From Spirochaetia bacterium (lineage in GTDB: Bacteria > Spirochaetota > Spirochaetia > SZUA-6 > Bin103), in assembly GCA_965215345.1 (NCBI GenBank), contig CBDCDL010000002.1, forward strand, positions 2,250,605 through 2,314,604: a stretch of DNA of 64,000 nucleotides. The letters run 5' to 3'. Numbering within the stretch: the first letter of the stretch is position 1; each line of letters starts with the position of its first letter. The position numbers and the translations under genes are program-made. Below, piece by piece: positions 12,719 through 13,319 of the stretch. The notes beneath the pieces were generated by a model. It did not search any database. It was not told where the DNA came from and saw only the letters and a program-made list of their open reading frames with translations.

Positions 12719-12937
12719 GTGATTGCGACGGAGTGGCGCCGGCACATAACTGTTGATCCCAGTATCTGTCATGGACGAGCGTGCATCACGGGCACACGCG
12801 TGCTGGTGACCACGATTCTCGACAACCTCGCTGCCGGACTGGATGCCGAGGAAGTCGCCAAGAGCTACCCGTCGATCAGTCGCGAATCGGTCGAGGCGGC
12901 GGTGTGCTACGCTGCGGACTTGGCTCGCCGTGTCTGA
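12719..12937 (+). CDS. DUF433-family small protein (antitoxin-like)
   Basis: 72 aa. ICHGRACITGTRVLVTTILDNLAAGLDAEEVAKSYPSISRESVEAAVCYA matches the DUF433 consensus (C.G.P.I.GTR..V..IL..L..G.s.eEI...YP.l....I.AAl.YA). Confidence 0.6.
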   Translation: MIATEWRRHITVDPSICHGRACITGTRVLVTTILDNLAAGLDAEEVAKSYPSISRESVEAAVCYAADLARRV

Positions 12938-13319
12938 ATCCGGATCGCGCTCGCTTCGCCTGTCGAAGCTCGACGCGCACGCGTGGGCGTCGGAGGCGTT
13001 GCTGTGCGTCTCGTGCGGTGAGGAGGTGACGGGCGATGGGGCGCGGATCAACGTCGCGGGCGCGCACCGGCATGACTTCTTCAACCCGCAGCGCGTCCAC
13101 TACGCGATCGCCTGCTTTGCCCCGGCTGACGGGTGCCGGACGGTGGGCGAGCAGACCGATCGCTTCACATGGTTCGCCGGGTACGCGTGGACGATCGCGC
13201 TGTGCCGGCGGTGCGGGACCCACTTGGGCTGGCGTTTCGTCTCCGCCGGGGGCGGCCACCGCTTCTTCGGACTGATCGAGTCGCGCCTGGTCCGTCTTGG
13301 GCAGGGTCGCGCCAACTGA
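12930..13319 (+). CDS. Cereblon-like CULT-domain protein (zinc-binding beta-tent)
   Basis: CxxC (LCVSCGEE) ... [14 protein letters not shown] ... [24 protein letters not shown]. This is nearly identical in pattern to human cereblon, [24 protein letters not shown], with the aromatic-cage Trp/Tyr and a second CxxC. The assumed start is a GTG overlapping the DUF433 stop by 8 nt. The frame is open from 12843, so the true start is uncertain. Confidence 0.6.
   Translation: [129 protein letters not shown]

Follow-up and report, generated by a model that had tools for sequence, protein, structure and literature searches.

Two small genes that overlap by 8 nt at the edge of a defence island, the first encoding a DUF433 protein and the second a cereblon-type CULT-domain protein, raise the question of whether they form a functional unit. 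A preliminary description of the 64-kb stretch of DNA analysed here (the window) had proposed that they do, as a ligand sensor, a toxin-antitoxin-like pair or an anti-phage system. From our comparison with related genomes, we conclude that the two are very probably unrelated genes joined by progressive deletion, and not a module. Both are ordinary members of known families, and their overlap appears to have arisen by chance as the genome of one narrow lineage decayed. The features concerned are listed in Table 1.

Table 1. Features around the DUF433–CULT overlap, in window coordinates.
Feature	Position	Strand	Product	Start and stop codons	Basis of assignment
gajA (Gabija ATPase/OLD-TOPRIM nuclease), island cargo	9087–10784	+			PADLOC GajA, E = 7.1e-196
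gajB (Gabija UvrD-like helicase)	10781–12703	+		TGA 12701–12703	PADLOC GajB, E = 1.4e-231
DUF433 ORF (COG2442, antitoxin family)	12719–12937	+	72 aa	GTG 12719, TGA 12935–12937 (read from the sequence)	Pfam PF04255
Deletion junction GGCT/CGCC	12925–12926				Homology to L001 and multiple alignments
Single-domain bacterial CULT (cereblon-type thalidomide-binding domain)	12930–13319	+	129 aa	GTG 12930, TGA 13317–13319	PDB phmmer, AF2/Foldseek
GNAT acetyltransferase (Acetyltransf_9)	13331–14554	+	407 aa, Eis-like size		Pfam, E = 6.9e-13
Aldo-keto reductase (AKR)	14571–15578	+		ATG 14571 (putative)	Pfam Aldo_ket_red, E = 7.8e-62
M20 (ArgE/DapE-family) metallohydrolase	15575–16753	+		ATG	Pfam Peptidase_M20, E = 1.5e-15

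The identification of the second gene as CULT was borne out by its homology to Magnetospirillum cereblon isoform 4 (MsCI4) and to CRBN, by its predicted fold and by its motifs; those quoted in the preliminary description are present. Pfam gave sub-threshold Yippee-Mis18 and TRASH matches alone, because it holds no CULT model, and the protein was assigned by sequence search against the PDB and by fold search instead. In phmmer, residues 23–121 matched MsCI4 (4v32/4v2y) with E-values of 9e-25 to 2e-24, and the thalidomide-binding domains of human and mouse CRBN were matched at about 2e-12 to 1e-10; at E ≤ 1e-10, 1,148 representative clusters matched the protein. The AlphaFold2 model (pLDDT 87.2) has the beta-tent fold and was placed by Foldseek on MsCI4 structures at TM 0.88–0.92 and an rmsd of 1.5 Å. 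The Zn-site cysteines, C26-x2-C29 and C92-x2-C95, are invariant or nearly so in family alignments. The aromatic cage is formed by W81, W87 and W101 together with F103, and its tryptophans align with those of the MsCI4 cage (human W380/W386/W400) and are invariant in two family alignments.

MsCI4 (MGR_0879 of Magnetospirillum gryphiswaldense; PDB 4V2Y and about 50 further entries) is, like the window protein, stand-alone and about 125–130 aa long, and the two share both CxxC Zn motifs and the three cage tryptophans, with 36–40% identity over about 100 structurally aligned residues (99 residues in the phmmer match). They differ in the N-terminal 22 residues, which are poorly predicted in the model, in the 68% GC genome from which the window protein comes, and at Tyr101 of wild-type MsCI4, where the window protein shares a Phe with human CRBN and with the Y101F variant 4V32. 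Bacterial CULT proteins in general are single-domain and stand-alone (Lupas, Zhu & Alva 2015, PMC4287342). The CULT domain of eukaryotic cereblon is homologous to the window protein and shares its Zn site and tri-Trp pocket, but the window protein lacks any LON-like or DDB1-binding region, and no ubiquitin system comes into play. CRBN serves CRL4 as its substrate receptor, and bacterial CULT proteins are in wide use as crystallographic surrogates for human cereblon. No physiological role of the bacterial proteins was found in the literature; for CRBN, published work describes C-terminal cyclic imides that act as endogenous degrons. From the conserved pocket residues we infer binding of glutarimide-, uracil- or cyclic-imide-type ligands; by analogy with MsCI4, the small, Zn-stabilised window protein most likely binds ligands of the uracil or cyclic-imide type.

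The GTG start of CULT and its overlap with the DUF433 stop, both reported earlier, are real. The overlap was read directly from the sequence (12930–12937). CULT orthologues with 65–88% identity are also called at 129 aa and likewise begin MSxxRSRS..., and the orthologous loci carry ATG or GTG at the matching codon; this agreement in length, N-terminus and start position supports the start at 12930.

The first gene proved to be a DUF433 gene, as had been described: it matches PF04255 over the full model (1–56/56) with E = 1.1e-21 and 76.8 bits against a cut-off of 23.6, and the DUF433 structure 2GA1 in the PDB with E = 2.7e-4. Eleven aligned homologues of 69–75 aa are 71–83% identical to it. 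DUF433 proteins had been introduced as the usual partners of DUF5615/PIN toxins, which agrees with a survey in which PIN genes were the sole conserved neighbours of COG2442/DUF433 (Makarova, Wolf & Koonin 2009, PMC2701414) and with the homologue P0166 (78% identical to the window copy in the alignment, 83% by BLASTP), whose gene lies 3 nt upstream of a DUF5615/PIN_10 gene. The window DUF433 resembles the antitoxins of these type II pairs in sequence, but differs from the pairs in having no toxin, a lost ATG, a replaced C-terminus and an unrelated core gene downstream. The gene that immediately follows it is CULT and not a DUF5615/PIN toxin gene. A distal DUF5615 partner had been raised as the alternative; it was looked for with a DUF5615 query by tblastn, which returned no toxin at E < 1 in the 64-kb window, only noise.

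Compared with its canonical 75-aa homologues, the window DUF433 has ACG in place of the usual ATG, so that the sole start on offer is a GTG 9 nt upstream, which has no good Shine-Dalgarno (SD) sequence. Its C-terminus reads ...ARRV instead of the longer ...AKERVVSLSx, and its stop codon is made by codons 2–3 of CULT. An exact-sequence look-up gave no record of this protein, and NCBIfam gave no match to the DUF433, CULT or GNAT proteins. Because the ORF is intact and its dN/dS against other alleles is 0.17–0.32, the protein may still be functional. It is now an orphan, possibly a DNA-binding or anti-addiction relic.

Upstream, the position directly after Gabija was confirmed with PADLOC. Gabija is a two-gene system, and both of its genes are complete here: gajA and gajB overlap by 4 nt (10781–10784), their PADLOC matches are essentially full-length, and gajA has Pfam matches to DUF2813, AAA_15/21 and OLD-like_TOPRIM. 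Other GajB loci differ from the window in having no DUF433 and no CULT. The intergenic site between NUDIX and CULT is a hotspot for defence islands, with type I RM, Septu, Gabija and others as cargo, and this cargo has been swapped between near-identical core backgrounds.

A recurrent DUF433 partner of bacterial CULT proteins, as envisaged in the preliminary description, did not emerge from a census of CULT neighbourhoods. The census scanned GTDB species genomes with a degenerate DNA motif, required an exact motif match and used fixed 8-kb blocks and a crude ORF caller; it covered at least 120 CULT loci, biased toward Desulfobacterota and other Proteobacteria, whereas CULT representative clusters number about 2,175. 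Among the matches listed, a six-frame DUF433 match was present at one of 120 CULT loci from other species, and that locus, L096, belongs to the lineage of the window. DUF433 was also not among the most frequent Pfam families of the nearest CULT neighbours in the matches listed, and no DUF433–CULT pair was found described in the literature.

Among the loci compared, the pairing is confined to one locus in one clade, whose AKR, M20 and MFS genes are 89–97% identical at the nucleotide level, and the distance between DUF433 and CULT varies within it (199 nt, 124–125 nt or −8 nt). In the outgroups L001 (CULT 82% identical at the amino acid level) and L131 (69–70%), NUDIX and CULT are separated by 56–57 nt and there is no DUF433; orthologues of CULT at 70–88% outgroup identity are without DUF433 in these two and in L002, L003 and L127–130. 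L133 has no island and no Gabija. Its DUF433 gene is followed by the first 22–24 or so codons of a DUF5615/PIN toxin gene and then by the native CULT leader. This toxin remnant, VRFKLDENLPSELAGLFVEAG, matches the DUF5615 N-terminus from the canonical L006 pair with 67% identity over 24 aa (tblastn, E = 6e-6), and the 199-nt spacer in which it lies leaves CULT with its own SD. In L186, L187, L004 and L005, the spacer of 124–125 nt is a shortened form of that in L133: at the 3' end, 32 of 34 nt agree.

In core genes, the window, L096 and L184 are nearest to one another (92–97% nt), and they are the only genomes with exactly the junction GGCT/CGCC-GTG, from which spacer and SD are gone. The junction was defined by multiple alignments with L133, L186, L004, L184, L096 and L001. 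Its left side is derived from DUF433; on its right side, the final 4 nt of the native leader precede the GTG of CULT. Nucleotide homology to the island-free L001 sets in at 12926, likewise 4 nt ahead of the CULT start. Since L096 and L184 have the identical junction, we rejected the idea of an assembly artefact or of an overlap peculiar to the window. Recurrent microhomology-mediated deletion was likewise rejected, as the breakpoints have no microhomology able to recreate the junction. A third candidate, in which the island brought DUF433 to a CULT gene that never had one nearby, was discarded because L133 has DUF433 and a toxin remnant in the absence of the island.

These loci suggest a series of events in which a canonical DUF433–DUF5615 (PIN-like) toxin-antitoxin module once lay immediately upstream of CULT and its toxin gene was then lost by stepwise deletion. 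In the window, L096 and L184, a final deletion would have removed the last DUF433 codons, the rest of the spacer and the CULT leader with its SD, and so produced the 8-nt overlap. As every genome of the subclade has DUF433 directly upstream of CULT, with or without an island, synteny alone cannot separate co-inheritance from co-function.

The fate of the two genes at the junction differs. In L096, the DUF433 gene is 5'-truncated, with its first 12 codons gone and no ATG, GTG or TTG start; only the 3' part is kept, and there is no Gabija. In the L184 protein, five residues that are invariant elsewhere have been lost, and its score is 55.7 bits, compared with 76.8 for the window copy. CULT is intact beside both damaged copies, with a dN/dS of 0.07 between the window and L096 and of 0.09 between the window and L184 (0.07–0.36 across comparisons). 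These patterns indicate that CULT is under purifying selection, that the DUF433 gene next to the junction is decaying in L096 and L184, and that DUF433 is dispensable in these sister genomes.

Synonymous divergence between the window and L184 places DUF433 on the island side (dS 1.14 for GajB and 0.71 for DUF433, against 0.23, 0.18 and 0.13 for CULT, GNAT and M20 on the core side), which indicates that DUF433 shares the inheritance of the island, not that of CULT. The junction is identical even though the DUF433 alleles differ by a dS of 0.71, so either it is older than the divergence of the core genes suggests or the alleles have been swapped. A swap of island alleles would need a crossover within the last 15 or so nt of DUF433; the alternative is the older junction.

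How CULT is expressed after the loss of its leader bears on whether the overlap has acquired a role. The pairing of the CULT leader with the anti-SD was estimated at −6.6 to −8.6 kcal/mol for the majority of orthologues that keep the native leader (−2.7 kcal/mol in L004 and L005) and at −1.5 to −3.7 kcal/mol in the three junction genomes. Translational coupling, which had been proposed for the pair, is mechanistically plausible because the window CULT has lost the SD that is present in orthologues with an intact upstream region. GNAT, AKR and M20 follow on the same strand, as reported, and a promoter/terminator scan found no terminator-like or sigma-70-like site in 12300–13700. Rfam and tRNA scans of the whole window gave nothing. 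Transcription of the CULT operon may come by read-through from the Gabija/DUF433 side, and translation of CULT may proceed by termination-reinitiation after DUF433 or by SD-independent initiation at GTG 12930. The remaining DUF433 ORF most likely supplies transcription, and perhaps reinitiating ribosomes, to the core CULT-GNAT-AKR-M20 operon.

It is possible, though on balance unlikely, that the DUF433 ORF now serves as a co-opted leader and is retained because CULT, with no SD before its start, needs ribosomes that terminate at 12935–12937 to reinitiate at its GTG; the DUF433 protein would then be irrelevant. The CULT SD is lost in exactly the genomes with the overlap, in which CULT is also under strong purifying selection, and in all three the DUF433 frame runs open as far as the junction, even in those with a degenerate protein. 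Against this, SD-independent initiation is common in many bacteria, and the L096 remnant has no canonical in-frame start, which puts its reading by any ribosome in doubt.

A role on the other side seems to us improbable; here DUF433 would serve this Gabija subtype as a third, accessory gene (a DNA-binding regulator, for instance), translationally coupled to gajB and touching CULT incidentally. In relatives, two diverged alleles have a 4-nt overlap of gajB with DUF433 (GTGA in L004, L005, L186 and L187; ATGA in L134 and L184), dS groups DUF433 with the island rather than the core, and the ORF is under purifying selection. However, DUF433 is absent from 49 of 50 metagenomic GajB loci (mostly 36–44% identical in matches to the full gene), and the sole exception, L134, is 99% identical to L184. 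L185 has a 71%-identical GajB at another locus, again without DUF433; conversely, DUF433 occurs without Gabija in L133, beside the toxin remnant, and as the 3' part in L096. In the window itself, a 16-nt insertion uncouples DUF433 from gajB, whose stop codon is in frame with DUF433, 5 codons upstream of its GTG.

Still less likely, in our judgement, is a non-neutral overlap in which the DUF433 frame or a DNA-binding DUF433 protein has been co-opted to wire expression of CULT, GNAT, AKR and M20 to the Gabija operon. If it were true, a binder of cyclic-imide- or uracil-type ligands and its associated enzymes would be expressed together with phage defence and perhaps tied to it in function, and the identical junction beside diverged island alleles (dS 0.7–1.1) would reflect selection and not chance.

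The genuine two-gene module, with CULT as a ligand-sensing or toxic effector in the place that usually falls to DUF5615 and DUF433 as its antitoxin or regulator, is the least probable reading of all and is largely refuted by the comparative data: CULT does sit in the toxin-gene slot directly after DUF433, at the edge of a defence island, and the overlap is kept in three genomes with two diverged DUF433 alleles, but the pair is limited to one clade and varies in spacing, toxin codons still separate the genes in L133, sister genomes with spacers of 124–199 nt keep CULT's own SD, CULT orthologues do without DUF433 in the outgroups and in 119 of the 120 other-species loci among the matches listed, CULT is intact beside the truncated DUF433 of L096 and follows the vertical synteny of a core gene, and neither protein matches a PADLOC-DB v2 defence model at E ≤ 0.001.

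We thus return to progressive deletion, after which CULT keeps its place among the core genes. The gap between CULT and GNAT is 11 nt long in the window, L001 and L186 alike. The putative AKR start follows an SD (GAGAGGAG), and the M20 start codon overlaps the AKR stop by 4 nt; NCBIfam ArgE/DapE subfamily models also match the M20 protein, all below their cut-offs. In the clade, the block adjoins an MFS transporter gene. The conserved arrangement indicates that CULT is a vertically inherited core gene, the first of the CULT-GNAT-AKR-M20 block, and that it marks the right-hand border of the variable defence-island hotspot that lies between the NUDIX gene and CULT.

An overlapping stop and start near a defence island resembled a new toxin-antitoxin or sensor system, and related genomes show it as the end point of a deletion series, one that consumed a DUF433–DUF5615 module; this calls for caution with similar arrangements. 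The site between NUDIX and CULT offers a clear case, in nature, of a defence-island hotspot with exchanged cargo, and the CULT-GNAT-AKR-M20 block next to the MFS gene provides a testable, lineage-restricted lead to the role of CULT proteins in bacteria.

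Our analysis confirmed the two overlapping forward-strand ORFs at 12719-13319 and the families to which the preliminary description had assigned them. The first matches the whole Pfam model PF04255 (E 1.1e-21, 76.8 bits with a cut-off of 23.6) and the solved DUF433 structure 2GA1 (E 2.7e-4); 11 aligned homologues of 69-75 aa are 71-83% identical to it, and it is an ordinary new member of the DUF433 antitoxin family. The second gave only a sub-threshold Yippee-Mis18 match to Pfam, which holds no CULT model, and its identity was taken from a PDB sequence search. Here, the Magnetospirillum single-domain CULT protein MsCI4 (4V32, 4V2Y; "cereblon isoform 4") matched residues 23-121 (E 1e-24 to 2e-24), and the human and mouse cereblon thalidomide-binding domains matched at E about 1e-11 to 1e-12. 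Both CxxC pairs (C26/C29 and C92/C95) and the cage tryptophans W81, W87 and W101 are present, and are invariant or nearly so in family alignments. The AlphaFold2 model (pLDDT 87.2) resembles the MsCI4 structures with TM scores of 0.88-0.92 and an rmsd of 1.5 Å. The protein matches MsCI4 in its fold, Zn-site cysteines and tri-Trp pocket, and is an ordinary new member of the bacterial single-domain CULT family. Because the Zn site and pocket are conserved, we predict MsCI4-like binding of a uracil-, glutarimide- or cyclic-imide-type ligand. The proposed GTG start was also upheld, since orthologues of 65-88% identity are called at 129 aa, agree at the N-terminus and carry ATG or GTG at the corresponding position; the 8-nt overlap with DUF433 follows from this start. 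In the representative library, P0014 (1737 aa) and P0015 (3950 aa) have 22 and 46 matched CULT-like stretches, respectively, and are therefore tandem CULT repeat proteins.

Features of the window around the DUF433/CULT overlap
Feature	Position	Strand	Length	Evidence or remark
Type I RM operon with nested Septu	2208-9041, farther upstream than Gabija			PADLOC
ptuA, ptuB (Septu)	3617-4834, 4831-5475			PADLOC, E 1e-111, 3e-70
gajA + gajB (Gabija), complete	upstream of DUF433			PADLOC, E 7e-196 and 1.4e-231
DUF433 ORF (ORF1)	GTG 12719 to TGA 12937	+	72 aa	Pfam PF04255
CULT ORF (ORF2)	GTG 12930 to TGA 13319	+	129 aa	PDB sequence search, AlphaFold2
GNAT (Acetyltransf_9), aldo-keto reductase (AKR), M20 hydrolase (ArgE/DapE-like)	within 13331-17925, 3' of CULT			Pfam; tight spacing
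DDE_Tnp_1 transposase	18111-19967	-	618 aa	inside 2.2-kb insertion 17932-20102

The position directly after Gabija and the GNAT, AKR and M20 genes downstream were as previously described; within 13331-17925, this block faces a convergent MFS transporter gene encoded on the other strand. For comparison, we used loci coding for the nearest relatives of the CULT, DUF433 and GajB proteins. Locus L001 (CULT 82% identical; 4.7-Mb contig) has a divergent NUDIX gene 56 nt from CULT, followed by GNAT, AKR, M20 and the converging MFS gene, with neither DUF433 nor defence genes, and the NUDIX/CULT order is the same in L131 (CULT 69-70%). From 12926 onwards, 4 nt ahead of the CULT start, the window and L001 are homologous in nucleotide sequence through M20 and MFS. 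This homology and synteny show that CULT is a vertically inherited core gene, and that all window DNA to its left belongs to a variable island that was inserted between the NUDIX gene and CULT. Loci L002 and L003 (CULT 88%) and L127-130 (77%) present other CULT contexts, all lacking DUF433; L127-130 carry different defence-like cargo 5' of CULT, namely an AAA_15/21 ATPase, a T4-endoIV-like gene and M78 or DUF4325. Comparison of window 1-12925 with these four loci and with L001, L131, L133, L096, L184, L186 and L187 shows the NUDIX-CULT intergenic site to be a defence-island hotspot. At 56-57 nt, the site has no cargo in L001 and L131; it holds only a TA relic in L133, RM and Septu in L096, and an HsdM fragment and Gabija in L184. 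Type I RM, Septu and Gabija occupy it in the window and in L186 and L187, with hsdR and gajA as fragments in the latter two. In the window, ptuA and ptuB have hsdS on one side and, on the other, a type I HsdR-like gene (1241 aa) that ends in a Peptidase_S24 (LexA-like) domain, an unusual fusion. The 2.2-kb insertion relative to L001 lies between the MFS transporter and 2-hydroxyacid dehydrogenase genes. The syntenic L001 region also lacks a further ~8.3 kb of the window (23756-32036); window 26075-28170 is 68% identical in nucleotides to oligopeptide ABC permease genes adjoining CULT in L002 and L003.

DUF433 had been described as the usual partner of DUF5615, and this is borne out. The sole conserved association reported for COG2442 is with a PIN-type partner as in the DUF433-DUF5615/PIN_10 pair (PMC2701414), and in locus L006 the DUF433 homologue P0166 (78% identical by alignment, 83% by BLASTP) forms the canonical pair, 3 nt upstream of a DUF5615/PIN_10 toxin gene. 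A toxin remnant is kept in L133, a genome of the window's clade that lacks a defence island. Its AKR, M20 and MFS genes share 89-92% nucleotide identity with the window, and the region of its CULT and GNAT genes looks rearranged. In L133, a divergent NUDIX gene is followed by a canonical DUF433, VRFKLDENLPSELAGLFVEAG, about 100 nt, and then CULT behind its native leader, in which GAGGTGAG is the Shine-Dalgarno (SD) sequence. VRFKLDENLPSELAGLFVEAG is a DUF5615 toxin N-terminus (67% over 24 aa with the L006 toxin, E 6e-6); a DUF433-DUF5615 module therefore once stood ahead of CULT and lost its toxin gene by deletion. The loci L186, L187, L004 and L005 contain the island with its type I RM, Septu and Gabija genes; their DUF433-CULT spacer is 124-125 nt long, and its 3' part matches the L133 spacer at 32 of 34 nt with the SD kept. 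The window lacks the C-terminal DUF433 codons and the entire spacer; at the junction (...GAC TTG GCT/CGC CGT GTC TGA), CULT codons 2-3 supply the DUF433 stop codon. Two further loci have the identical junction: L096 (OZ241879.1, "Spirochaetia bacterium", 7.03 Mb; 93-97% nucleotide identity to the window) and L184 (92-96% in core genes). The three are mutual nearest relatives by core genes, and one deletion in their common ancestor is the simplest account of the shared junction. The best explanation of the DUF433/CULT overlap is a series of progressive deletions that removed a DUF433-DUF5615 module at the defence-island hotspot and ended in this arrangement. At the other end of DUF433, the overlap with gajB is GTGA in L004, L005, L186 and L187 and ATGA in L134 and L184. 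A 16-nt insertion in the window (12701-12721, compared with L004 5995-6004) ends gajB early; gajB and DUF433 are in one frame, with TGA and five codons between them. L005 carries a second, canonical DUF433 copy with seven toxin codons after it, flanked by an approximately 240-bp duplicate (10-251 and 538-776, 80-86% identical) of the 5' end of NUDIX and its upstream region. The arrangement suggests that a donor island entered the resident toxin gene together with donor flank DNA.

The proposal that DUF433 and CULT form a module was not sustained. Scanning GTDB species genomes with a degenerate DNA pattern based on the core motif of CULT, WFxGYxW-x4-CxxC-x2-HLGW, yielded at least 120 CULT loci, mostly in Desulfobacterota, but also in Alpha- and Gammaproteobacteria, Myxococcota, Spirochaetota and others; the taxa of the listed loci agree with the bacterial CULT distribution in Lupas et al. 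(PMC4287342). A six-frame DUF433 profile search (E ≤ 1) matched one of the 120 CULT loci listed, L096, and DUF433 is absent from the 25 most frequent Pfam families among their nearest ORFs (110 upstream, 114 downstream). The commonest neighbours, HemD/TP_methylase (13/110 upstream) and SNF2 helicases (8-9/114 downstream), are both lineage-specific. No DUF433 was found in 49 of 50 metagenomic GajB loci, the exception being L134, which is 99% identical to L184; nor was it found in L185, where a 71% identical GajB lies at another locus. Neither protein matches a PADLOC model, which argues against the suggested anti-phage system, and we conclude that the overlap does not represent a novel system.

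Purifying selection acts on CULT throughout, also in the junction genomes (window, L096, L184), with dN/dS of 0.07 (window versus L096) and 0.09 (window versus L184). Between the window and L184, dS reaches 1.14 in GajB and 0.71 in DUF433, and only 0.13-0.23 in CULT, GNAT and M20. The history of DUF433 is therefore that of the exchangeable island, not that of CULT, and the sharp dS break despite an identical junction indicates that the Gabija cassette allele was replaced between near-identical backgrounds. The identical junction beside such diverged alleles is possibly due to an exchange of island alleles whose crossover fell within the final ~15 nt of DUF433, over which the alleles are nearly identical. 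Alternatively, the junction may have persisted from an earlier time than the divergence of the core genes implies, which would modestly favour a selected arrangement; we regard a selected arrangement as very improbable. A start-less DUF433 remnant in L096 argues against a strict need for DUF433-CULT coupling: it lacks the first 12 codons, follows an in-frame TGA, and has no ATG, GTG or TTG before the domain. DUF433 is not consistently maintained in the junction genomes. The window has ACG where the canonical ATG stands, and its sole start is a GTG without a usable SD; L184 carries T26A, G40E, D42S, S49R and P51R at residues invariant in the aligned homologues, and its Pfam score is down to 55.7 bits. 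The window allele, with dN/dS of 0.17-0.32 relative to other alleles, may have a residual function, for example as an orphan antitoxin or DNA binder.

The junction genomes have lost the CULT leader and its SD, and anti-SD pairing amounts to -1.5 to -3.7 kcal/mol, compared with -6.6 to -8.6 kcal/mol for most orthologues with the native leader (-2.7 in L004 and L005). No promoter-like or terminator-like sites were found between gajB and GNAT. The CULT-GNAT-AKR-M20 block would be transcribed from the island side, and CULT would be translated either by ribosomes that terminate at the end of the DUF433 ORF and reinitiate, or by initiation without an SD. With the MFS gene, this block is kept in L001, L184, L186 and L187, and L096 matches it through M20, where the compared sequence ends; it is fragmented in L004, L005 and L133, and absent from L002, L003 and L127-130, the last having CULT abutting the MFS gene. 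The portions of the literature consulted contain no description of a cellular role for bacterial CULT proteins. Both genes belong to known families and their overlap is explained without a new system; the CULT-GNAT-AKR-M20 block is a possible, lineage-restricted functional lead for bacterial CULT.
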